Source: an uncultured Lachnospiraceae bacterium (GTDB lineage: Bacteria; Bacillota; Clostridia; Lachnospirales; Lachnospiraceae). From it: a DNA stretch of 64,000 nucleotides. The stretch covers positions 52,097 to 116,096 of the forward strand of contig CANDAE010000010.1 in assembly GCA_947382645.1 (NCBI GenBank). Reading direction: 5' to 3'. Positions 24,094 through 35,895 of the stretch are shown here, one piece after another. Each line of letters starts with the position of its first letter. Position 1 is the stretch's first letter. The position numbers were made by a program, and so were the translations under genes. The notes below the pieces were generated by a model. The model did not search any database and was not told where the DNA came from. It saw only the letters and a program-made list of their open reading frames with translations.

Positions 24094-25635
24094 TTATTCA
24101 GATTGTCCTCTTCTGTACCGGGCAGGTGTCTGCCCTGTATATTTTTTAAAAACTCTTCCAAAATAATTTTCATCTTCATAACCAACCATTTCCGCCACCT
24201 GTACCACACTTCTTTTTCCTGTTTTCAGTAATTCACAGGCTTTTTCCATCCGCATCTTTGTAATGGCGGTTACAATGGTCATATGATATTTGTTTTTAAA
24301 AATTCTTGCCACATATTGTGGCGTCTGAAAAAGATCCGCCGCAATAGTTGAAAGCGTTATATCTTCTGAATAATGCTCCTTGATGTAAGCATATATTATC
24401 TCCGCAGGTTCTTCCTTTATCCGGAAGTAATCCATAAGCAGGTCAAGACGTTTTAGCACTTCTTTTTCCCATAAATCAATGTCATTAATCCACAGAGAAA
24501 GAAGTTCCGTAGGAACCTCCCTCTCCTGTCTGGCGGCAAGCCGTCCAAGCAGAAGATTCATGTCGGCAGTACATCTTTGCAGTTCCTGTAATTTCAACGC
24601 CCCTCCCCTCTTTAAGCCGCTACAGTAATCTCTAATAATTTTTTTAAGCATTTCTCTGTCCTTGCTTTCCAAAACGCTTATCATTCGCAATTCCAGACTC
24701 AATGCCCCGTCACTCTGCACAGGATTTTTTTCTGCCAGAGAAGCTATCGTGCCGCATCCCCAAACATTTCTTTGACGTAAAATTCCATTTTGTTCCCCTA
24801 ATATATTCTTTAAGTCTTTCAGCTCCACAGGTTCCAGACTCACTACCCAGGTAATCTTTAGTCCAACAGCTTCTTCTATCTTCTTTTCAAAAATCTTCAT
24901 TTTATCTGAAACCTTAAAGGAATTCAATTCTTCTTTCTGTAAAAAAAACTGCCAGTTAAATTCATCTACATAAATATCCTGTTTGAAAAAATAAAGTTTA
25001 AAAATGTCACGCATAACATTTCCTACAGTAAAAAAACAAAGTTCTCTGTCACCCTCATATTTATTCTCTATGACTTCTGAGGCATTCCGGCTCAAAACAG
25101 ATACCAGTAAAAATTTTCCATTTCCGGCACCCAGCTTTACAAATGCTTCCTCTGTCTGCTCCCTGCTCACCCCTTCTCCTCTGCAAAAACTCTGCAAAAT
25201 CTGATTAGCCATAACAATCCCCATTTGTTCATGTTGTCTGTTCTTAACAGCCTCTTCTTTTTCTCCCCGAATTTTTAAAATAGCTTTTTCCAGCGCATTT
25301 ACCAGAGTTTCCTTTCCGAAGGGCTTTAAAATATAATCAACTCCGTTAGCCAGCAGTGTGGCATAAACATAGGAAAAATCGCTGTACCCGCTGATTGCAA
25401 TTACCTGAATTTTAATCTGACGCTCCGTAATTTCTTTCAGAAGCTCTCTTCCGCCCATCACCGGCATTTCCATATCACAAAGTAAAATTTCCGGCTTTTT
25501 TTCCTCAATTATTTTCAGGGCTTCTATCCCATTTGTTGCATAATAAACTTCCTGCACTTCATAACTCTCCCAATCGATCATCAGCTCAATGGCTTCTCTC
25601 ATATGAACTTCATCATCAACAATTATTACTTTCAT
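24094..25635 (-). CDS. Two-component response regulator, receiver plus AraC HTH (YesN-like)
   Basis: Motifs IIVDDE, CDMEMP and YILKP, with a C-terminal AraC HTH (YFGRVFKKYTGQTP). Confidence 0.93.
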   Translation of the reverse strand: MKVIIVDDEVHMREAIELMIDWESYEVQEVYYATNGIEALKIIEEKKPEILLCDMEMPVMGGRELLKEITERQIKIQVIAISGYSDFSYVYATLLANGVDYILKPFGKETLVNALEKAILKIRGEKEEAVKNRQHEQMGIVMANQILQSFCRGEGVSREQTEEAFVKLGAGNGKFLLVSVLSRNASEVIENKYEGDRELCFFTVGNVMRDIFKLYFFKQDIYVDEFNWQFFLQKEELNSFKVSDKMKIFEKKIEEAVGLKITWVVSLEPVELKDLKNILGEQNGILRQRNVWGCGTIASLAEKNPVQSDGALSLELRMISVLESKDREMLKKIIRDYCSGLKRGGALKLQELQRCTADMNLLLGRLAARQEREVPTELLSLWINDIDLWEKEVLKRLDLLMDYFRIKEEPAEIIYAYIKEHYSEDITLSTIAADLFQTPQYVARIFKNKYHMTIVTAITKMRMEKACELLKTGKRSVVQVAEMVGYEDENYFGRVFKKYTGQTPARYRRGQSE

Positions 25636-27371
25636 TCCTGCTCCTTATTTTCTTTTGCTATTACAAACTCAACTGTTGTTTCCACTTTGGGTATACTTTG
25701 AATTTCCCAGTCAAATCTTTCTTCATAATAAATACTGCATCTTTGCAGCACATTTAATAAGCCAATTCCATGATCCGAGGCCGCAGTAAATTCATAATTT
25801 TTATAGGCTTCCTTCAATTTTTGTATCTGCTCCCTGCTCATACCAATTCCATTATCAATAACCCGTATCTGGTATTTATCCGGTTTTTCATTAATGGAAA
25901 TCATAATAGTTCCTGTTCCGTCCTTTTTGTCAATTCCATGCTTAATGCTGTTCTCCACAAGAGGCTGTAGAATCATTTTGGGAATAAGCAGGCTGCCTGC
26001 CTCTTTGGGATAATGAAGCATAAAATGGAGTCTTCCGGCAAATCTTCCCTCCTGCAGCGCAATATAGTTTTCAATATGCTTCAACTCTTTTTTAAGGGTA
26101 ACAATATCCTCTCCGGTATTCATTGTATATTGGAACAGTTCTCCTAACTGCGTCAACTGCATTGAAACTTCCTGGCAATGATGTTTCAGTGCAGTCGTGC
26201 TGATATATTGCAGCATATTATATAAAAAATGCGGATTGATTTGTGCCTGCAGCATTTTAAAACGGGATTTTGTCACCTCTAACTGATAACGATAATTTTT
26301 ATTGATCAGCTCATCCAGGTTTGTCATCATTTCCGCATACTTGTTTTCCAGAATTCCCAGCTCATCTTTGCGGTTTGATTTCGACTTATATACAAATTCG
26401 GGTTTTTGTTTAACCGCTTCCATATTATTAAGCATTCTTCTCACCGGAGAAATAAACAGATTAAACACCAGAAACAAAAATACTACGGATACTGCCAACA
26501 GACAGGCCTGTACTGCCATTGCCCCAATGACGACTCTCTCGGCAGGATCTGTAAACCAGTGATTATCTACAAACATAATAAGACGAACCTCTTCTCCTTT
26601 ATAGAAATCTCTTTTCAGAAAAAACATTCCCTTTGCTCCGTCCAATGTTCCTTTGGTATAATGTTTTTCTAAAAGTTCTTTTTCTGCATAATCGGCATTT
26701 TCAAAAAAACCTGACGTATAAATCAGTTCTCTGCCATCTTCTCCAAGGCAGACCATAACCACATTGTCTTTATACTGTCCGCATAATGTTTTTGTCACCT
26801 CCTGTAATTCTTTTAAATCTGCAAAAATGCGCATACTGACAGCAGTGTCATAAGATGGAACATTCTGAATATCCATATTGTAAATTAAATAAACTGGATT
26901 TCCCACTTCGTCTCTTCCCACCTGAAAAATATCTCCACTCCGCTCCGGATATTGATACTCTCCAATTTCCATCCTTCTTTGTGCATTCGCATAAACGCCA
27001 TTAATGACCTCCCCATTTTTGCAGTACATCACAATACGAAAAATTGCAGGCGCTTTATCACTGACAGCTTTGCCGTATTTACGTACCATATAACGCTCTA
27101 CATCTGTAAACTTTGTTTTTCGATTTAATATTCTGACAACATCCGGATTTTCAAATAAATTCATAGGCGCCTGTTCTATCCTGCGGATAAAATTTATTGT
27201 CTCCTCCATGCCAATTCCCATCATGCTTTCATTCCAGTCAATAATCTGCTGCTGCATCATATGGTAATTCTGCCTGTATGCAATCACATTAGATATGATA
27301 CTTGGCAAAATAATAACCAACATTAGTAGTGCAATCAGTTTCATAAAAAGGCTGTTTTTAATTTTATCCAT
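25632..27371 (-). CDS. Sensor histidine kinase (YesM/LytS-like)
   Basis: Motifs LQAQINPHFLYN, LQPLVENSIKHG, DNGIG and GIGLLNV, with two TM segments. Confidence 0.93.
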   Translation of the reverse strand: MDKIKNSLFMKLIALLMLVIILPSIISNVIAYRQNYHMMQQQIIDWNESMMGIGMEETINFIRRIEQAPMNLFENPDVVRILNRKTKFTDVERYMVRKYGKAVSDKAPAIFRIVMYCKNGEVINGVYANAQRRMEIGEYQYPERSGDIFQVGRDEVGNPVYLIYNMDIQNVPSYDTAVSMRIFADLKELQEVTKTLCGQYKDNVVMVCLGEDGRELIYTSGFFENADYAEKELLEKHYTKGTLDGAKGMFFLKRDFYKGEEVRLIMFVDNHWFTDPAERVVIGAMAVQACLLAVSVVFLFLVFNLFISPVRRMLNNMEAVKQKPEFVYKSKSNRKDELGILENKYAEMMTNLDELINKNYRYQLEVTKSRFKMLQAQINPHFLYNMLQYISTTALKHHCQEVSMQLTQLGELFQYTMNTGEDIVTLKKELKHIENYIALQEGRFAGRLHFMLHYPKEAGSLLIPKMILQPLVENSIKHGIDKKDGTGTIMISINEKPDKYQIRVIDNGIGMSREQIQKLKEAYKNYEFTAASDHGIGLLNVLQRCSIYYEERFDWEIQSIPKVETTVEFVIAKENKEQE

Positions 27372-27547
27372 GTAAAATATCCTCTCTGATCTTAAAAGCA
27401 GAATTTGCTGTATCACGGCATATACAGAATCATTTTACTAAAACTGCTCAAGGCAAAACAGGGAATATCTGAACCTGTTTTACGTACAATTTGAATTATT
27501 TTTCATTTCTTATTACTAGTCTTAACCAGGAAATCGGCACTGAATTC

Positions 27548-27576: not shown

Positions 27577-27617
27577 TAATTACATCATTTTCATCCGGCA
27601 GAAAGGACATTATAATT

Positions 27618-27872
27618 ATGAAAAAAATAGGACTGGCAGTCTTTAAATTTACGTATTTTTTTACATGCTTCTTTTTCCTGTTCAGTAATACCGCATTTGC
27701 ATATATTGATCCGTCTGCAGTCACTTATGTGATTCAGGCTGTCGCAGGTATTTTCATTGCTGTAGGCGCTGCATGTACCGTTTACAGACACAAAATTGCA
27801 AAGTTTTTTCGAAAGATGAAGAAAAAACACAATAAAAAGAAACAGGAGAAGGAACAGGAGTCCCATGAATAG
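27618..27872 (+). CDS. Small membrane protein (signal peptide, YIDP motif, TM helix, basic tail)
   Basis: AAAGGA RBS; predicted AFA|YIDP cleavage site; hydrophobic VIQAVAGIFIAVGAACTVY; K-rich C-terminus. Overlaps the next gene by 8 nt. Confidence 0.75.
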   Translation: MKKIGLAVFKFTYFFTCFFFLFSNTAFAYIDPSAVTYVIQAVAGIFIAVGAACTVYRHKIAKFFRKMKKKHNKKKQEKEQESHE

Positions 27873-29808
27873 TATAATTAATCTGATCGGTGATATTCTG
27901 GGATGGCTGATGTATTTCAGTTATCATCTCCTGCATAATTATTTCTGGTCGATTTTATTTTTTACTTTTTTAACAAAAATTCTTTTATTTCCGGTTTCTC
28001 TAATGGTACAGAAAAATTCCATTAAGATGGTAAAGCTCCAGCCGGAAATTAATTTTATTAAAGCGAAATATTTTGGAAATGGCGAAAAAATATCAGAGGA
28101 ACAATATGAATTATATAAACGGGAACACTACCAGCCTTTAGCGGACTTAATTCCCCTGATTCTTCAACTTGTCCTTCTAATGGGTGTTATTAACGTCATT
28201 AATGATCCGGTAAAACATATTTTTCGAGGCGGCGCCGGAACATTAAATACCATGTTTGGCGGGATAGATTTGTCTTCCATCCCCATAGAAACAAGAGGAA
28301 TTACATATTTAATTCCTCTTATTGCTGCATTTTCCGCCTGGTTTATGTGTTTTATTCAAAACCGCATTAATGTGCTTCAATCCGAACAAAATAAATTCAA
28401 TCAATACGGCACTATGCTGTTGTCCATTGGCTTATCCCTGTATTTAGGCTTCTTTGTAAAAACCGGGGTTGGTATTTACTGGACATTTAGTAATTTACTT
28501 TCCATTGCTCAGTTATATTTACTTAACATCATTATGAATCCCAAAAAATATATTGATTATGATGCATTGGAAAAAAGCCGGAAAGAGCTTGCCGAAAGCT
28601 CGGCCTTTCACAAATCTTCACAGAAAAAATTATTTGATAAGGATCCTTACCGCAGGAAAGAGAAAGCCGACTATAAACGATTTTTCAAAGATTATGAAAT
28701 GCAGATTGTCTTTTATTCTGAGAAAAACGGGTTTTACAAATATTTTCAAAATATCATTGAAACCCTGTTAAAAAAATCAAACGTAATCATCAATTATATT
28801 ACAAGTGATCCGAAAGATCAGGTATTTCAAATGGAAAGCGACCGCTTCCGTCCTTTTTATATTGGCGAGCATAAATTAATTGTTCTTATGATGAAACTGG
28901 AAGCAGATCTGGTAGTTATGACCACTCCTGACCTGGAAAATTTTCATTTAAAACGCTCTCTGGTTCGAAAGGACAACGAATACATTTACGTTCCCCATGA
29001 TGTTAACAGCCCGAACCTTACTTTTCATAAAGATGCGCTGGATCATTTTGACACCATTTTTTCTTCCGGTTTTTTATGCACAAAGGAAATTCGAAAAAGG
29101 GAAGAATTATATCACCTGCCTTCCAAAAATATCATTGAATGGGGCTCCGGCGTAATTGACAATATGATTTTTGCATACGAGAATATGGATAAGCGCCGAA
29201 AAACTGTTCGGGAAATTCTGATTGCGCCTTCCTGGCAAAAGGACAATATTTTATCTTCCTGTATAGAAGAAATACTGGATTATCTGGGGGGACTTGGATA
29301 TAAAATTATTTTAAGGCCTCATCCTCAGTTTGTCCGCCATGAGGAAAGCCGGCTTGAATACCTGCGCCAAAAATATCATATGGATTCCCGTGATGACATG
29401 GAATTACAGACAGACTTTTCTTCCAACAGCACCATCTATGAAGCCGATCTTGTCATTACGGACTGGTCAAGTATTGCATTTGAATACTCCTTTGCAACAC
29501 TGAAACCATCTTTATTTATTAATACGCCAATGAAGATTATGAATGAAGACTATGAAGAGCTGGGAATTACCCCTATTGATATAGAGCTTCGCAATAAAGT
29601 GGGCAGAAGCGTTGAACTGGAAAGTTTAAAGGATTTGCCGAAAATTATACATGAATTACTAACCAGCAATGAATTTTCAAGAGAAAGCCTTCACAAAATC
29701 CGTGAAAAATATATTTATAATATTGGCTCCAGTGGAGAAAAAGGCGCAGATTATATTCTTGAAAGACTAAAGTATTATAAGAAAAAACATGAAGAGGAAG
29801 ACGACTGA
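27865..29808 (+). CDS. YidC/Oxa1 insertase domain fused to a CDP-glycerol glycerophosphotransferase (TagF/TagB-like) domain
   Basis: N-terminus: LTKILLFP...KLQPEI...ELYKRE...LIPLILQL...GVGIYWTFSNLLSIAQ (YidC core). C-terminus: ILIAPSW, LRPHPQ and ADLVITDWSSIAFEY (Glyphos_transf). Confidence 0.85.
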   Translation: MNSIINLIGDILGWLMYFSYHLLHNYFWSILFFTFLTKILLFPVSLMVQKNSIKMVKLQPEINFIKAKYFGNGEKISEEQYELYKREHYQPLADLIPLILQLVLLMGVINVINDPVKHIFRGGAGTLNTMFGGIDLSSIPIETRGITYLIPLIAAFSAWFMCFIQNRINVLQSEQNKFNQYGTMLLSIGLSLYLGFFVKTGVGIYWTFSNLLSIAQLYLLNIIMNPKKYIDYDALEKSRKELAESSAFHKSSQKKLFDKDPYRRKEKADYKRFFKDYEMQIVFYSEKNGFYKYFQNIIETLLKKSNVIINYITSDPKDQVFQMESDRFRPFYIGEHKLIVLMMKLEADLVVMTTPDLENFHLKRSLVRKDNEYIYVPHDVNSPNLTFHKDALDHFDTIFSSGFLCTKEIRKREELYHLPSKNIIEWGSGVIDNMIFAYENMDKRRKTVREILIAPSWQKDNILSSCIEEILDYLGGLGYKIILRPHPQFVRHEESRLEYLRQKYHMDSRDDMELQTDFSSNSTIYEADLVITDWSSIAFEYSFATLKPSLFINTPMKIMNEDYEELGITPIDIELRNKVGRSVELESLKDLPKIIHELLTSNEFSRESLHKIREKYIYNIGSSGEKGADYILERLKYYKKKHEEEDD

Positions 29809-29852: not shown

Positions 29853-30983
29853 ATGCAGATAGAAAGAAAAATATTATTAAATCCCGGACCTGCAACTACA
29901 ACAGATACTGTAAAAATGGCACAGATTGTACCTGACATCTGCCCAAGAGAAAAAGAATTTGCTTCCATGATGAAGCAGATGAGAGAAGATCTGGTCCGTA
30001 TTGTTCATGGCAGCCCTGATAAATACACTTCCGTCCTTTTCTGCGGTTCCGGAACCATTAATATTGATGTGTGTTTGAACTCACTTCTTCCCGAAGGAAA
30101 AAAGATATTAATTGTCAATAATGGTGCCTACAGCGCCCGGGCAGCGGAAGTATGTGAATATTACCATCTGCCATTTATCAATCTTAGATTTCCGGTGGAT
30201 GAACTGCCTGATTTGGCTCAAATTGAAACTGCGTTAAAAGAAAATCCGGATATTGCTCTGGTTCATACCACCCACAATGAAACCGGCACAGGTATCTTAA
30301 ATCCTATTCGGGAAATTGGCGCTCTGGTTCATAAATATCATGCTGTTTTTACGGTGGATACTACATCTACTTATGCCATGCGTCCAATTAACATAGAAGA
30401 AGACCAAATTGATTTTTGCATGGCTTCCGCCCAGAAGGGGCTTATGGCAATGACAGGACTGTCATTTATTGTTGGCAATAGGGAAATAATTAAAAAATCA
30501 GCTGAATATCCTAAACGTTCCTATTACTGCAACCTGTATCTGCAATATCATTTTTTTGAAACAACAGGAGAAATGCACTTTACTCCTCCCGTTCAGACAA
30601 TCTATGCCGCACGTCAGGCAATCAGGGAATACTTTGCAGAAGGAGAAGAGACGAAATGGCAGCGGCACTTAAGCGTTTTTCATGCCATTCATGAAGGACT
30701 TGACAGGCTGGGATTTAAAGATATTATTAAAAGAAAGTGGCAGGCAGGGCTTGTTGTTTCTGTCAGGTATCCGGATGATGCCAACTGGGATTTTGAAAAA
30801 ATTCATGACTATTGTTATGACAGAGGTTTTACAATTTATCCTGGAAAAATTTCCTCCCAGAACACTTTCAGATTATGCGCATTAGGCGCTATCACCACAG
30901 AAGATATTAAAAACTTTTTTGACATATTTGAGGAAGCCCTGAAAAAATATGAGATAAAAATTCCTGTTCAATATAATGATTAA
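29853..30983 (+). CDS. aepZ: 2-aminoethylphosphonate aminotransferase (PLP, class V)
   Basis: Motifs LLNPGPATT, NNGAYSAR, HNETGTGILNP, SAQKG and FTPP. Lies beside pepM. Confidence 0.92.
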   Translation: MQIERKILLNPGPATTTDTVKMAQIVPDICPREKEFASMMKQMREDLVRIVHGSPDKYTSVLFCGSGTINIDVCLNSLLPEGKKILIVNNGAYSARAAEVCEYYHLPFINLRFPVDELPDLAQIETALKENPDIALVHTTHNETGTGILNPIREIGALVHKYHAVFTVDTTSTYAMRPINIEEDQIDFCMASAQKGLMAMTGLSFIVGNREIIKKSAEYPKRSYYCNLYLQYHFFETTGEMHFTPPVQTIYAARQAIREYFAEGEETKWQRHLSVFHAIHEGLDRLGFKDIIKRKWQAGLVVSVRYPDDANWDFEKIHDYCYDRGFTIYPGKISSQNTFRLCALGAITTEDIKNFFDIFEEALKKYEIKIPVQYND

Positions 30984-31018
30984 CTGTTTTTAGTCCACAG
31001 AAAAGGAAATACAATAAA

Positions 31019-32314
31019 ATGAAAAAAGTATACACATGTTTCTGTACGGATGTGATCCATGAAGGCCATCTTAATATTTTAAAAGAAGCAAACAAATACG
31101 GTGATGTCACTGTAGGTATTCTCAGTGATGCCGCAATGATAAAGTACAACCGTTTTCCCACCATTTCCATTGAAGAGCGGAAAACAATTGTAAAAGAAAC
31201 CGGACTGGTTTCAAACATTATCATTCAGAACGAAATTATGTACGATAATGTCTTAGCACAGCTAAAACCCGACTACGTAATTCATGGCGATAACTGGTGC
31301 AAAGGTCCGGAAAGTGCAATCAGAACCAACGTAATTAATAATTTAAATAAATATGGCGGAAAACTGATTGAAATTGGTTACACTTATAATGAAAATGTCC
31401 GGAAAATTGACGATAACATAAAAGAAAAGCTTGCAATGCCTGAATTCAGAAGAAAACGTCTCCGCCAGCTTTTAAAATTATGCCCCATTGTAAAAGCAAT
31501 TGAGGCTCACAGCGGACTTACAGGGCTGATTGCGGAAAAAACAGTTGTTGAACACAACGGAGAATTAGATCAGTTTGATGCCATGTGGCTGTCGAGCCTT
31601 TGTGACTCTACTGCCAAAGGCAAACCTGATATTGAGCTTGTGGATATGTCCTCCAGAATACGCACCATTGACGATATTATGGAAGTAACTACAAAACCTG
31701 TTATTTTAGACGGAGATACCGGCGGTCTGGTGGAACATTTTATTTATAATGTGCGCACCTTAGAGCGCATGGGCGTATCGGCAGTGATTATTGAAGATAA
31801 AACCGGGCTTAAGAAAAATTCCTTATTTGGCACGGAAGTGGCACAGACACAGGATTCCATTGAAAACTTTTGCGAAAAGATTCGCGCCGGAAAAAATGCA
31901 CAGAGAACAGAAGAATTCATGATTATAGCCAGAATTGAAAGCCTGATTCTTGAAAAAGGCCAGGAAGATGCTCTTAAACGTGCTTTTGCATATGTGGATG
32001 CAGGCGCTGACGGTATTATGATTCATTCCAGAAAATCATTGCCTGACGAAATTTTTGCCTTTTGCGACGCTTTTAGAGCAAAAGATTCACATACACCCAT
32101 TGTTGTGGTTCCAACATCCTTCAACTGCGTGACAGAAGCAGAACTGATTAAGCATGGAGTAAATATTGTAATTTACGCAAACCAGTTAACGCGCAGCGCT
32201 TTTCCGGCCATGCAGAATACTGCCATAGATATTTTAAAAAACCACAGAGCTTTGGAAGTGGATTCCAGACTAATGCCTTTTAAAGAAATTATCACCTTAA
32301 TTGATGACATATAA
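31019..32314 (+). CDS. aepX: Phosphoenolpyruvate mutase with N-terminal cytidylyltransferase domain
   Basis: PepM signature EDKTGLKKNS and EAHSGLTG; N-terminal HxGH motif (DVIHEGH). Confidence 0.96.
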   Translation: MKKVYTCFCTDVIHEGHLNILKEANKYGDVTVGILSDAAMIKYNRFPTISIEERKTIVKETGLVSNIIIQNEIMYDNVLAQLKPDYVIHGDNWCKGPESAIRTNVINNLNKYGGKLIEIGYTYNENVRKIDDNIKEKLAMPEFRRKRLRQLLKLCPIVKAIEAHSGLTGLIAEKTVVEHNGELDQFDAMWLSSLCDSTAKGKPDIELVDMSSRIRTIDDIMEVTTKPVILDGDTGGLVEHFIYNVRTLERMGVSAVIIEDKTGLKKNSLFGTEVAQTQDSIENFCEKIRAGKNAQRTEEFMIIARIESLILEKGQEDALKRAFAYVDAGADGIMIHSRKSLPDEIFAFCDAFRAKDSHTPIVVVPTSFNCVTEAELIKHGVNIVIYANQLTRSAFPAMQNTAIDILKNHRALEVDSRLMPFKEIITLIDDI

Positions 32315-32327
32315 AGTGAGTAAAATT

Positions 32328-33038
32328 ATGAGCAAAGAAATTGGTATCATTATGGCAGCAGGGCTTGGAAGCAGAATGCACCCTGTCACAAAAACAATTC
32401 CCAAGCCTCTCGTAAAAGTATTTGGAAAACCTCTTATTGAAACTGTCATTGATGGCCTTTTAAAAAGAGGTGTTACGGAGATTTATGTTATTGTAGGCTA
32501 TTTAAAGGAATGTTTTTCCGGATTGTGCGATAAATATCCACAGATTACATTAATTACAAATCCCGATTACCTTGTGAAAAATAATATTTCTTCCATTTAT
32601 GCTGCCAGAAATGTTTTAGGCAAGGCCAATTGTTTTATCTGCGAAGCAGACTTGTTGATTTCCGATTCATCCGTATTTGAAAAAAAATTAAGCAGTTCCT
32701 GCTATTATGGCCGGATGATGGCCGGTGTTTCTGACGATTGGATCTTTGAATTAAAGGACGGTTATATTTCCAGAGTCAAAAAAGGTGGTAAAGATACCTA
32801 CAACATGGTGGGTATCTCCTACTTTACAAAAAAAGACAGCCTGATTTTAAAGGAAAAAATTGAGGAAGCATACCGCCAGGAGCAAAATTCCAATTTGTAT
32901 TGGGATGAGGTAGTGGACTTAAATCTGAACGAACTTAAACTTAAAATTGAGCCTGTAGAAGAAGGACAAATTATCGAAATTGATACGGTAGAAGAATTGC
33001 TTGCAATTGATCCAAATGCAGGAGAACAGGAGTGCTGA
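32328..33038 (+). CDS. LicC/PntC-like NTP transferase (probable AEP cytidylyltransferase)
   Basis: Motifs IIMAAGLGSRM, PKPLVKV, NNISS and EIDT. Sits between pepM and ppd. Confidence 0.8.
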   Translation: MSKEIGIIMAAGLGSRMHPVTKTIPKPLVKVFGKPLIETVIDGLLKRGVTEIYVIVGYLKECFSGLCDKYPQITLITNPDYLVKNNISSIYAARNVLGKANCFICEADLLISDSSVFEKKLSSSCYYGRMMAGVSDDWIFELKDGYISRVKKGGKDTYNMVGISYFTKKDSLILKEKIEEAYRQEQNSNLYWDEVVDLNLNELKLKIEPVEEGQIIEIDTVEELLAIDPNAGEQEC

Positions 33039-33040
33039 AA

Positions 33041-34189
33041 ATGAAAGCTGACTTTTTCTTACATAAAATAAATGAAATGGGCATTCAAACTATTGTCGGA
33101 GTGCCTGATTCCACATTAAAGCAGCTATGTGACGAAATTCAACTGGATGCCGGAAAAAATTTCCGTCATTACGTAACTGCAAACGAAGGGGCTGCTGTCG
33201 CCCTTGCTTCCGGTGAATATCTTGCCACAGACAGGCCATGCTGTGTCTATCTGCAGAACTCCGGCATTGGCAATATAATTAATCCGGTTGCTTCTATCAC
33301 CAACAGGGAAGTATATGGAATTCCAATGCTTTTTGTAATTGGCTGGCGGGGTGAACCGGGCAAAAAGGATGAACCCCAGCATGTCTATCAGGGAAAAATT
33401 ACCTGCAAATTACTGGAAGTAATGGACATTCCTTATTCCGTTATTGATTCTGAAACCACAAACGAGGAACTTGATACGATTCTTGCAAACGCAGATTCTC
33501 ACCTTTCAAATGAAATGCAATATGCTTTGGTAGTAAAAAAAGACACTTTTGAAAAGGGTTCTTCCTTTACCTGGGATAATGGCTATGCGCTTGTACGCGA
33601 ACAGGCCTTAAAAACAATTCTTGAGGAGGTATATGAAGATTCTTACCTTATATCCACCACTGGAAAAATTTCCAGGGAGCTGTACGAGCAGAGCAACCAG
33701 CTTTTTGGCAGTCATGAGCGGCTTTTTATGTGCGTTGGAGGCATGGGGCATGCATCCATGATCGCATATGGTATGGCACAGGCAGATAAAACGAAAAAAA
33801 TCGTCTGTATAGATGGAGACGGGGCCCTTATGATGCATATGGGTTCTTTGGCATTTATTGCAAAACAGGCTCCTGAAAATTATTTGCATATTGTAATCAA
33901 TAATGCTTCCCACGAATCAGTAGGCGCTATGCCTACCGGTTTTTCGGGCCAGACTTACGCTCAAATTGCAAAAGCATGCGGATATCCTCATGTCACTACC
34001 GTTTACACGAAAGAAGATCTTAAGGCAGCTTTACAGAAGGCTAAAAAAATGCAAAAACTTTCTTTCATTGAGGTTATGGTATCTCTGGATTCCAGAAAGG
34101 ATTTAGGCAGGCCTTTGGAAAGTGCAAGGGAAAACAGGATTCAATTTATGAATACCTGTATTAATCAATATAAGGGAGATTTTAAATGA
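33041..34189 (+). CDS. aepY: Phosphonopyruvate decarboxylase (ThDP)
   Basis: Motifs GVPDSTLK, ANEGAAV, YLQNSGIGN, DEPQH, GGMGHAS, DGDGALMMHMG and HESVG. Confidence 0.95.
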   Translation: MKADFFLHKINEMGIQTIVGVPDSTLKQLCDEIQLDAGKNFRHYVTANEGAAVALASGEYLATDRPCCVYLQNSGIGNIINPVASITNREVYGIPMLFVIGWRGEPGKKDEPQHVYQGKITCKLLEVMDIPYSVIDSETTNEELDTILANADSHLSNEMQYALVVKKDTFEKGSSFTWDNGYALVREQALKTILEEVYEDSYLISTTGKISRELYEQSNQLFGSHERLFMCVGGMGHASMIAYGMAQADKTKKIVCIDGDGALMMHMGSLAFIAKQAPENYLHIVINNASHESVGAMPTGFSGQTYAQIAKACGYPHVTTVYTKEDLKAALQKAKKMQKLSFIEVMVSLDSRKDLGRPLESARENRIQFMNTCINQYKGDFK

Positions 34190-35895
34190 AAGAAAAACTG
34201 AAAAATTGGGGCATCGGTTTTTTGATATGCTTTTTATTTGCCTTTATGCTTTTGATTTTCGGCCCGGCAGAAATTTATTTTGTAAATGTAGCTGAATTTA
34301 AATTTGTGTATGGTGAGTTTGTATGGCTCCTGTCCGGAATTGCCATAATCAGTTCCGCTGTCATAAGTTTTCTTGCTGCATTTCTTCCGCCTGTAGTAAG
34401 AAAAATTATATGGTCTGTTTTCTTCGGGCTGTCTGTTGCCGGTTATGCACAAATTATGTTTATCAATGAAGGGCTGGATCTGCTTGGAATGAATCCGGAA
34501 GGCTATCAATCCGGTATTGGACAGGCTGTTTTCAATGGCTTTCTATGGCTGGCGCTGCTTGCTCTTATTATTTTTCTGGCTTTATGGAAGGAAAAAATCT
34601 GGCAAAGCATCATTTGCTTTGGAGCAGTTTTTTTAATAGGCATTCAATCGGTTGCCTGGATTTCATTGATGTTATCGGCTGAAGAAATTGCATACAAATA
34701 CGAAGAAGGCGAATGGTCTCTTTCAGGTGAAGACCAGTTCAAAGTATCCTCTGGCAAAAATATTATTGTATTTGTACTGGATTATTTCAGCAATCAATAT
34801 ATAGAACCAACAATGGAACAGTACCCTGATCTGCTTGACGGTTTGAATGATTTTACCTACTACAGCAACACTGACTGCACCTATTTCGGCACATATCCAT
34901 CACTGGCACATATGCTGTCAGGCTCGGAACCTGATCCTTCAATTTCAATTAATGACTGGACCTCAAAAATATGGCAGGACGAAAAAACAGTGGGATTTTA
35001 TCAGGCTTTGCATGATCAGAATTATGTGGTAAATGTTTATACTCCGGATAAAAACATGCTTTGCGGCATGAACAGTGCAGAAATATTAAACCAAAATTTT
35101 TCCAACGTTACCAATGCCGGACAGGACTTTAATGTAAACTACGTCCTTCTTGCAAAAACAATGATTAAAATGTCAGCTTACCGTATGTTTCCATATGCAT
35201 TAAAACCTTATTTCTATGCAAATGTCAGCGAGTATTCTGAAATTATTACTCCGAAAAGCAGAGGAGTAAGCCATGAAAACCACCGTTATTATGGACATTT
35301 ACTGGAAGAAAAGCTTTCAACAGATGACAAATCAAATTATTATATATTCCAGCATTTGTCGGGAACTCATGTCTATGAAACAGACATAACAGGTGAATAT
35401 GCAGAAAACTCTTCTCTGGAAAAAACCGCAAAGGGCTGTATGGTCATCATGGAGGAATATTTAAATCAATTAAAAGAACTTGGAGTTTATGACGATGCCA
35501 CTATTATTATAACAGCAGATCATGGAGGTTCAAGGGACTCACAGGTTATATTTTTTATGAAAAATGCTCATGAATCCCATGAAGAAATGCTTATCAGCAA
35601 TGCTCCTATTGGTTTAACAGAATTTCAGGCGACTATTGCACAATCTGCCGGAATTGATTATTCACCTTATGGACCAGCAGTCAGCGATATCTCTCCCTCT
35701 ATACCCAGGGAAAGAACTGTATGGGTTCGTTTGTATGTTGATACCCTGCCCTCTGTTCCAAAATATTCCGGCGAAGGAGAAAGTGTATCCAATGCCTACT
35801 GCGGCTTTACCTATACGGGAGATATCAACGATCTATTCGAAAAATATGATGATGGACCAGATATTATCATTCCGGAAACAGACGGATTTTTCTAA
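34186..35895 (+). CDS. Multi-TM alkaline-phosphatase-superfamily protein (LtaS/EptA-like phospho(no)transferase)
   Basis: About 5 N-terminal TM helices, then VFVLDYF, GTYPSL (Thr at the nucleophile position), HLSGTH and IITADHG. Confidence 0.75.
   Translation: MKEKLKNWGIGFLICFLFAFMLLIFGPAEIYFVNVAEFKFVYGEFVWLLSGIAIISSAVISFLAAFLPPVVRKIIWSVFFGLSVAGYAQIMFINEGLDLLGMNPEGYQSGIGQAVFNGFLWLALLALIIFLALWKEKIWQSIICFGAVFLIGIQSVAWISLMLSAEEIAYKYEEGEWSLSGEDQFKVSSGKNIIVFVLDYFSNQYIEPTMEQYPDLLDGLNDFTYYSNTDCTYFGTYPSLAHMLSGSEPDPSISINDWTSKIWQDEKTVGFYQALHDQNYVVNVYTPDKNMLCGMNSAEILNQNFSNVTNAGQDFNVNYVLLAKTMIKMSAYRMFPYALKPYFYANVSEYSEIITPKSRGVSHENHRYYGHLLEEKLSTDDKSNYYIFQHLSGTHVYETDITGEYAENSSLEKTAKGCMVIMEEYLNQLKELGVYDDATIIITADHGGSRDSQVIFFMKNAHESHEEMLISNAPIGLTEFQATIAQSAGIDYSPYGPAVSDISPSIPRERTVWVRLYVDTLPSVPKYSGEGESVSNAYCGFTYTGDINDLFEKYDDGPDIIIPETDGFF

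Follow-up and report, generated by a model that had tools for sequence, protein, structure and literature searches.

The question raised by this locus is why a small membrane protein should be encoded directly beside an insertase that is fused to a transferase. In the 64,000-nucleotide stretch from an uncultured Lachnospiraceae bacterium that we analysed as a whole (the window), positions 27618–27872 on the plus strand hold an ATG-started open reading frame of 84 amino acids. As read from the sequence it consists of the consecutive parts MKKIGLAVFKFTYFFTCFFFLFSNTAFA, YIDPSAVTYVIQAVAGIFIAVGAACTVY and RHKIAKFFRKMKKKHNKKKQEKEQESHE, and the same protein with its extracellular cap split out reads MKKIGLAVFKFTYFFTCFFFLFSNTAFA-YIDPSAVTY-VIQAVAGIFIAVGAACTVY-RHKIAKFFRKMKKKHNKKKQEKEQESHE. 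The first-pass annotation had described a hydrophobic leader ending in AFA, a YIDPS segment, a transmembrane (TM) helix, a basic tail and an overlap of 8 nt with the next gene, and all of these features are present when the sequence is read again. The stop codon TAG at 27870–27872 lies inside the gene of the YidC fusion, whose ATG is located at 27865, and the shared 8 nt are ATGAATAG. A Shine-Dalgarno-like AAAGGA (27602–27607, plus strand), likewise read from the sequence, precedes the ATG of the microprotein by 10 nt, and the sigma-70-like TTTTCA-17-TATAAT that a scan returned at 27588–27616 is no better than expected from shuffled sequence.

To begin with, the open reading frame is coding and conserved. 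We found 204 homologues at E<=0.01 among the 90% clusters and 533 among the 50%-identity cluster representatives, those with named sources coming nearly all from Lachnospiraceae. Their core AYIDPSAVTYxIQAVAGxxIAxGAxxTxxRHKI is almost invariant and its synonymous codons vary freely. In an HMM-based alignment of 29 diverse members, with overall identity down to 55%, the residues A28, Y29, D31, S33, A34, V35, T36, Y37, I39, Q40, A41, V42, A43, I47, A48, G50, A51, T54, R57, H58, K59 and I60 are invariant and P32 is nearly so. The conservation of the YIDP peptide, on which the first-pass annotation had made its reading depend, is thereby borne out, and the peptide is near-invariant also in the enzyme-fused form of the module described below. 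Among 82 distinct DNA versions the invariant core residues use two to four synonymous codons each; as these versions were picked by a motif regex, part of their invariance is due to ascertainment, and the two HMM-based alignments, of free and of fused modules, give the same invariant set. Invariant residues together with varied synonymous codons fix the plus strand and the reading frame and argue against the overlapping minus-strand open reading frames. The microprotein is thus encoded by a genuine gene under purifying selection, far beyond what chance would produce. Conservation is highest in the extracellular cap and the TM helix and lowest at the C-terminus, as judged from the same 29-member alignment and the codon table. 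The cap YIDPSAVTY (residues 29–37, 27702–27728, plus strand) is a nearly invariant hallmark of the family and is predicted to form the N-terminus of the mature protein, and the predicted TM helix that follows (about residues 35–56, 27720–27785, plus strand, placed by the alignment and the codon table) has an invariant face including the small residues A41, A43, A48, G50, A51 and T54. No significant family match was obtained in Pfam, NCBIfam, PHROG or the PDB sequence profile: all PHROG matches had E >= 0.0025 and were to unrelated membrane proteins, the M13 coat protein (2cpb) appeared in the PDB profile search at the chance level of E 0.82, and the YidD domain PF01809 had no match at E <= 0.1 in Pfam, so the microprotein is not YidD. 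It defines a protein family that lacks annotation and comprises hundreds of clusters, every one of them labelled hypothetical. A 78-aa open reading frame upstream of CotH in another locus (L004), considered as a possible paralogue, proved to be unrelated.

The leader (residues 1–28, 27618–27701, plus strand) is composed of an MKK n-region, the hydrophobic core KFTYFFTCFFFLF and the c-region NTAFA, and cleavage by signal peptidase I is predicted after Ala28. It shows the sequence features of a signal peptidase I substrate, as the n-region is positively charged, the h-region is hydrophobic, and both -1 and -3 are occupied by small uncharged residues. Position -1 before Tyr29 is Ala and position -3 is A, V or S in 82 of 82 copies, position -2 is bulky (H, F, Q or Y), and position -4 is frequently Pro or Thr; the rule for signal peptidase I cleavage is thus kept while the remaining leader drifts. 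Peptidase_S26 genes adjoin leader-bearing module genes in at least five arrangements and in several lineages, examples being the order microprotein, signal peptidase, YidC fusion with a 4-nt overlap (L091/L092), module before peptidase (L157/L160), peptidase before module (L071) and a peptidase on the opposite strand directly beyond the module (L144, L150–154). Some relatives, starting with MFNSIMVGG-YIDPS or MRPVMA-YIDPS, leave no room for a leader. Because such leaderless variants exist, the functional unit is the cap with TM helix and tail, and it would comprise the YIDPSxxTY cap, the helix with its invariant face of small residues, a juxtamembrane R-H/K-K and a basic-then-acidic tail. In the window the predicted cytoplasmic tail (27786–27872, plus strand) consists of the invariant RHKI, a Lys-rich stretch, the acidic end EQESHE and the stop TAG, its last 8 nt being those shared with the YidC fusion gene; in other clades the tail closes with a conserved acidic motif, either IEFKDVDD or, in free as well as fused forms, ESDD(I/L). 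The TM segment is helical in both AlphaFold models that we considered, a pseudo-fusion with the YidC fusion and a natural fusion to an LtaS-like enzyme. Cleavage after Ala28 would leave a protein with its N-terminus outside and its C-terminus inside, and this topology agrees with the fused forms, where a cytoplasmic linker, a multi-helix membrane domain and an LtaS-type catalytic domain that is necessarily outside come after the module.

M13 procoat (the gp8 precursor) and Pf3 coat protein are the classic YidC-only substrates. The procoat-like layout proposed for the microprotein holds up well, since leader, short external segment, TM helix and basic tail are arranged accordingly and A/V/S-x-A precedes Tyr29 in 100% of the copies. 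Like these coat proteins the microprotein is small, has a cleavable A-x-A leader as in procoat or, in some relatives, none as in Pf3, and combines a very short acidic exported segment with a single TM helix and a Lys-rich tail in a predicted N-out/C-in topology. In contrast to them it has no sequence relationship to either, its gene is chromosomal and part of a cell-envelope operon, and the module can be part of large enzymes. Furthermore, the exported segment has a length of only eight to nine residues and is itself the most conserved part of the protein, an indication that the protein has a function once it is inserted.

The constant genomic partner of the microprotein is the gene that it overlaps, which encodes a protein of 647 aa (27865–29808, plus strand) with a YidC (60KD_IMP) core and a TagF-like Glyphos_transf domain according to Pfam and NCBIfam (YidC-GT in the following). 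The YidC core was recognised as 60KD_IMP with E 1.7e-30 in Pfam and as yidC_oxa1_cterm in NCBIfam; a Foldseek search with the model of a homologue led to TagF (3l7k, E 6.9e-10) and to the YidC of B. halodurans (3wo6, target-normalised TM-score 0.74), and the Lys at the groove position is kept in at least 95% of the alignment rows. The homologues listed for YidC-GT itself were close relatives only, and metagenome loci served for the inverse test described here instead. Among 80 loci from distinct species that were found through the microprotein, YidC-GT is the next gene wherever enough downstream DNA is available, with a gap of -8 to +164 nt and once of 522 nt, mostly between -8 and +40 nt, and with 'TAA GAGGCGGTT ATG' as the commonest junction. 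As a set collected in this way is biased, the inverse test was based on 80 metagenome loci retrieved by the TagF-like domain alone. The microprotein is present in 47 of the 49 that have enough flank on both sides, and one of the two exceptions carries a frame-broken copy of it. Its position relative to YidC-GT varies, being upstream-adjacent in 29 loci, directly downstream in 23 (-62 to +55 nt) and one gene further downstream in 17, so that it lies 3' of YidC-GT in 40 of 69 independently retrieved loci. A linkage that survives such rearrangement indicates function and not an inherited operon layout. The microprotein accordingly looks like a dedicated partner of the YidC fusion, adjacent to it in essentially every locus even with inverted order, and the genomic side of the claim that it is the private partner of the insertase is well supported by both locus sets. 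The claim of translational coupling stands in part: the 8-nt overlap is real in the window, but it is a feature of this clade only, and roughly every second member of the wider family has the microprotein gene behind that of the fusion.

A second partner had been overlooked in the first-pass annotation, as the module occurs also as N-terminal domain of LtaS-like transferases. In the search of the cluster representatives the microprotein matched residues 5–80 of PF00884 proteins of 640–705 aa with E 2e-11 to 1e-7. The first ~80 residues of these proteins are the module and the remainder is a multi-TM PF00884 enzyme, and in an alignment of 77 of them the module residues A, Y, D, P, S, Y, I, Q and G are invariant. 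Genes for the fused proteins are found directly against YidC-GT, overlapping it in two loci (L174, L176) and convergent with it in a third (L175), and in L088 such a gene belongs to the same cluster as YidC-GT. In other loci (L125, L131, L159) the order is YidC-GT, free microprotein and LtaS-like gene. The free microprotein of L131 aligns with residues 22–98 of the fused protein P0282 (E 2e-20) and the gene following it with residues 139–614 (E 3e-58), which makes them a clean fission/fusion pair, and no module-bearing LtaS-like gene was found in loci that have a free module. The window itself encodes an LtaS/EptA-like membrane transferase of 569 aa (34186–35895, plus strand) with a multi-TM N-terminal part and an alkaline-phosphatase-superfamily domain, for which PF00884 is marginally below the gathering cut-off (24.3 vs 25 bits). 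It aligns with residues 140–610 of P0282 (E 2e-32), and a check of this gene and its counterpart in L001 revealed no N-terminal module in either. The top fold matches of a fused LtaS homologue are PbgA/YejM, EptA, LtaS and MCR-1. A further protein of 907 aa (P0374) joins a YidC core directly to an LtaS-like enzyme. As the module is the N-terminal domain of LtaS-like enzymes, the extracellular transferase is at least as likely as YidC to be its physical partner. Microprotein, YidC-fused cytoplasmic transferase and LtaS-like extracellular transferase therefore seem to form one conserved unit, for which three independent kinds of genomic evidence speak. The trio is not absolutely obligatory at the level of single loci, since L093 has four module-LtaS paralogues (identified by module HMM matches) and LicD with no YidC-GT within 14.5 kb, and L114 has YidC-GT without a nearby module; moreover, about 40% of the microprotein loci contain no LtaS-like gene within 9 kb.

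The neighbouring genes suggest what this unit may transfer. Between YidC-GT and the LtaS-like gene the window carries the genes for head-group supply (29853–34189, plus strand; assigned by Pfam), namely an aminoethylphosphonate (AEP) transaminase, a cytidylyltransferase-PEP mutase fusion, a LicC-like NTP transferase and a phosphonopyruvate decarboxylase, and in most related loci the same AEP set of transaminase, cytidylyltransferase-Ppm, LicC-like NTP transferase and Ppd comes after the pair. About fifteen genome loci and many metagenome loci have a LicA/LicC-type choline kinase and cytidylyltransferase instead of the AEP set, and some loci with microprotein and YidC-GT carry Fe-ADH, indicating hydroxyethylphosphonate (HEP). 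The occurrence of the same pair with genes for AEP, HEP or phosphocholine shows that its use extends to head groups in general and is not restricted to phosphonate, and the proposed tie of the microprotein to phosphonate had to be given up, as the pair also serves phosphocholine (LicA/LicC) and hydroxyethylphosphonate clusters.

From these results we propose that the microprotein is a leader-processed small subunit of procoat/Pf3 type that bridges two enzymes, the YidC-TagF-like one and the extracellular LtaS-like transferase; we assign this reading a probability of roughly 55%. It would be made as a procoat-like precursor and inserted by a YidC-only route, possibly via its own partner YidC-GT; a YidC-only type of insertion is suggested because the exported segment is so short, and the leaderless relatives resemble Pf3 coat in this respect. 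Signal peptidase I would then remove the leader after Ala28 and release an N-out/C-in protein of 56 residues, with the eight-to-nine-residue YIDPSAVTY cap outside, one TM helix and the basic-then-acidic tail in the cytoplasm. LtaS- and EptA-type enzymes take their head group from lipid donors. The YidC-TagF-like fusion may use CMP-AEP or CDP-choline at the inner face of the membrane, and its YidC groove probably moves the product across and could carry a lipid-linked product outward, which is conceivable as YidC scrambles lipids in vitro (PMC11047089). The LtaS/EptA-like transferase would pass the head group to the final acceptor, and the mature helix with its YIDPS cap would sit at the outer leaflet between the two enzymes. 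The most likely role of the module would thus be that of a docking or hand-over helix coupling both of them there.

It is also possible, albeit rather unlikely, that the LtaS-like transferase is the sole partner of the module, which would then be one of its subunits or an extension of it and might form, for instance, a lid at the outer leaflet that binds the lipid donor or the head group, and that the adjacency of the module to YidC-GT reflects no more than shared operon membership or the use of the fused YidC as insertase. This idea draws on the fact that the module undergoes fusion and fission with LtaS-like enzymes and never with YidC-GT, and on the locus with four module-LtaS paralogues and no YidC-GT nearby (L093). 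The structure predictions point in the same direction. In the AlphaFold model of the module-LtaS fusion P0155 (mean pLDDT 89) the module reaches 57–86 and the membrane core 95–98, compared to a pLDDT of 35–46, below 50, for residues 23–88 (conserved cap, TM helix and tail) in an AlphaFold2 pseudo-fusion with YidC-GT, in which the enzyme has a mean of 80 and the leader helix 72–78. The pseudo-fusion was built from 32 in-frame loci of microprotein and YidC-GT with the stop codon read as Gly, giving 32 paired and 74 unpaired rows. The docking of the microprotein on the fused insertase, for which the first-pass annotation had suggested a co-folding test, was not predicted with confidence by this pseudo-multimer, a weak test given the 32 paired rows and the unnatural forced topology. 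However, in the clade of the window the free gene abuts YidC-GT and often overlaps it, with the LtaS-like gene five genes away, many loci with microprotein and YidC-GT contain no LtaS-like gene within 9 kb, and the linkage to YidC-GT survives inversion of the gene order. We therefore prefer the microprotein as a link between both enzymes over a role confined to the extracellular one.

The second alternative, which we regard as improbable, is a covalent shuttle analogous to DltX, with Tyr, Ser or Thr of the cap carrying the phospho(no)-head group as an ester from the membrane enzyme to the LtaS-like transferase. In the variant put forward by the first-pass annotation the TagF-like domain would modify the cap in the cytoplasm and the fused YidC would flip it outward; alternatively the cap might relay the group on the outer surface. 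The membrane microprotein DltX passes D-Ala from DltB to DltD by means of an invariant Tyr near its extracellular end, and DltX-type motifs are fused to enzymes in related pathways (PMC12148441). There are similarities, as the microprotein is also encoded in an operon for envelope-polymer modification, has an invariant Tyr next to its predicted extracellular end and is proposed here to act between a membrane enzyme and an extracellular transferase, as DltX does with an equivalent motif that is enzyme-fused in sister pathways (PMC12148441). Y29, S33, T36 and Y37 are invariant at the predicted outer surface, free and enzyme-fused forms of the module exist, and the operon combines one membrane transferase with one extracellular transferase. 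The translocation of short acidic tails is moreover the native activity of YidC, and the cap is exactly such a tail. However, the active site of the TagF-like domain faces the cytoplasm, on the other side of the membrane from the extracellular cap, and YidC is not known to have a tunnel like that of DltB. A carrier that is modified and then inserted could be used only once, which makes little sense for a module fused to an enzyme of 650–700 aa, and in LtaS/EptA-type enzymes it is normally a Thr of the enzyme itself that takes over the head group of a lipid. The motifs differ as well, YIDPSxxTY in the microprotein compared to FxYxxF in DltX; the latter is absent from the microprotein, whose exposed terminus would be the N-terminus and whose C-terminus is variable and predicted to be cytoplasmic, in contrast to the extracellular C-terminus that bears FxYxxF in DltX. 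Finally, the partner folds are YidC-TagF-like and alkaline-phosphatase-superfamily here but MBOAT and SGNH for DltX, and the chemistry would be that of a phospho(no)diester instead of an acyl ester. If true, a cap carrier would do with phospho(no)-esters what the DltX shuttle does with acyl groups, and an insertase domain would for the first time be seen to export a small-molecule modification.

That the fused insertase does no more than insert the microprotein, which would have an unrelated function of its own, or that the microprotein is a relic of a phage coat, seems very unlikely to us: its topology is procoat/Pf3-like and M13 coat was matched, if at chance level, but there is no significant similarity to coat families or PHROGs, a phage context is absent, and the invariant cap and single helix face together with the LtaS-like fusion argue for a role inside the head-group pathway. 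Least credible is a leader peptide like MifM of B. subtilis, encoded upstream of yidC2, in which the small open reading frame would sense membrane-insertion capacity and control the downstream YidC paralogue by ribosome stalling; although in this clade a small membrane-targeted open reading frame lies immediately 5' of a YidC-family gene and overlaps it, and its family has acidic C-terminal ends loosely like the DEED that forms part of the MifM motif, we rejected this option because the microprotein is found 3' of YidC-GT in so many relatives, conservation peaks in cap and TM helix and not at the C-terminus, where no arrest motif is conserved, the folding of the junction RNA does not exceed that of its shuffles (z = 0.31) and yields no hairpin that would mask the Shine-Dalgarno sequence, and the module also exists as an enzyme domain.

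The adhesion of bacteria and their recognition by the immune system are shaped by the phosphocholine and aminoethylphosphonate that their surfaces carry. The literature that we searched gives no account of the way in which Lachnospiraceae and related gut Firmicutes attach these groups, contains nothing specific on phosphocholine machinery in Lachnospiraceae, and in its open part has no mention of the YidC-TagF fusion or of the microprotein. The pathway around the microprotein seems to be a variant of the Lic/Pnt decoration pathways (LicA/LicC/LicD; PntC; PMC6697681), with which it shares CMP-AEP and CDP-choline as donors and the decoration of surface glycopolymers. It differs from them in that most of its loci lack LicD as transferase and instead have the TagF-like domain on a YidC core, the microprotein and LtaS-like enzymes, and the survey of these pathways mentions no genes of the YidC, glycerophosphotransferase or sulfatase families (PMC6697681). 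The trio may therefore mark an undescribed three-part machine that decorates the surface of gut Firmicutes with aminoethylphosphonate or phosphocholine. It gives a handle on the role of a YidC/Oxa1 core joined to a small-molecule transferase, which might act as an insertase for a private subunit or as a scramblase for a lipid-linked product, and on whether envelope modification relies in general on microprotein relays of the DltX kind, with the invariant nine-residue cap offering obvious targets for point mutants. Besides the free and the LtaS-fused module we observed a form of ~190 aa that bears an acidic linker behind the module and has a coiled coil at its C-terminus.

Several of the related loci carry an extra signal peptidase I (Peptidase_S26) gene that directly adjoins a gene for a leader-bearing module, that is the YIDPSxxTY cap, TM helix and cytoplasmic tail behind a leader. 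Such genes were found at L091:6448-6966, L157:7465-7932, L071:8448-8966 and L144:7460-7948 (minus strand) and also in the loci L150-L154, in several differing gene arrangements. The adjoining peptidase genes suggest a dedicated processing enzyme for the leader-bearing modules. Leaderless variants of the microprotein are encoded at L115:4196-4420, L125:7205-7429, L131:7220-7459, L133:9003-9221 and L140:1599-1823, and no adjoining Peptidase_S26 gene was seen beside them. Several leaderless variants retain V-x-G/A directly before the invariant Tyr (MVGG-Y, NVAG-Y and MVGA-Y), a pattern that would fit the removal, even here, of a very short propeptide to expose an N-terminal Tyr.

On the cytoplasmic side, about 25-30 residues beyond the TM helix, a second conserved tail motif was identified in L131, L144, L150, P0201 and P0206 as well as in the consensus of A3, the alignment of 77 fused module-LtaS proteins. 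It reads KLGIDENxNKEVESDD(I/L) in free modules and ESDDLxFxDP in fused ones; the C-terminal IEFKDVDD of another clade possibly corresponds to it, and the motif itself may be a cytoplasmic contact site. Longer forms of about 190-220 aa (P0135, P0144, P0151, P0165, P0240 and L091:5867-6451) continue from the module into an Asp/Glu-rich linker, behind which the C-terminus carries a conserved coiled-coil motif, ENRELRRLLAEERQKVE.LK.ALHICT.

In P0374 (907 aa) a 60KD_IMP/YidC core is joined directly to a multi-TM LtaS-like enzyme of the alkaline phosphatase superfamily, and thus YidC cores occur joined to either of the two transferases in the proposed decoration system, the TagF-like one in the cytoplasm or the LtaS-like one outside. 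A YidC-Glyphos_transf fusion at L088:7407-11177 (1347 aa by the gene call of the collection; the gene extends past the locus end) bears in addition a long C-terminal LRR_5 region. In one species, 522 nt (L015:9256-9777) are inserted between the microprotein gene and the gene for the YidC-Glyphos_transf fusion; the insert contains repeated units (…TTTGAAAGCCCGCTAAAGCGGGCGGATGGGAGTAAACGTGAGAAGAGTTTCTAA…) along with a stretch of N, and resembles a repeat element or a gap in the assembly.

Regarding the wider neighbourhoods, a sortase-domain protein gene (L093:1612-2376) shares its cluster with four module-LtaS paralogues, LicD and a cytidylyltransferase. In the window, two genes at 24094-27416 on the minus strand lie divergent from and just upstream of the microprotein gene; judged by their translated sequences, one product is a histidine kinase of 594 aa and the other an AraC-type response regulator of 513 aa, and a sugar ABC transporter adjoins this pair.
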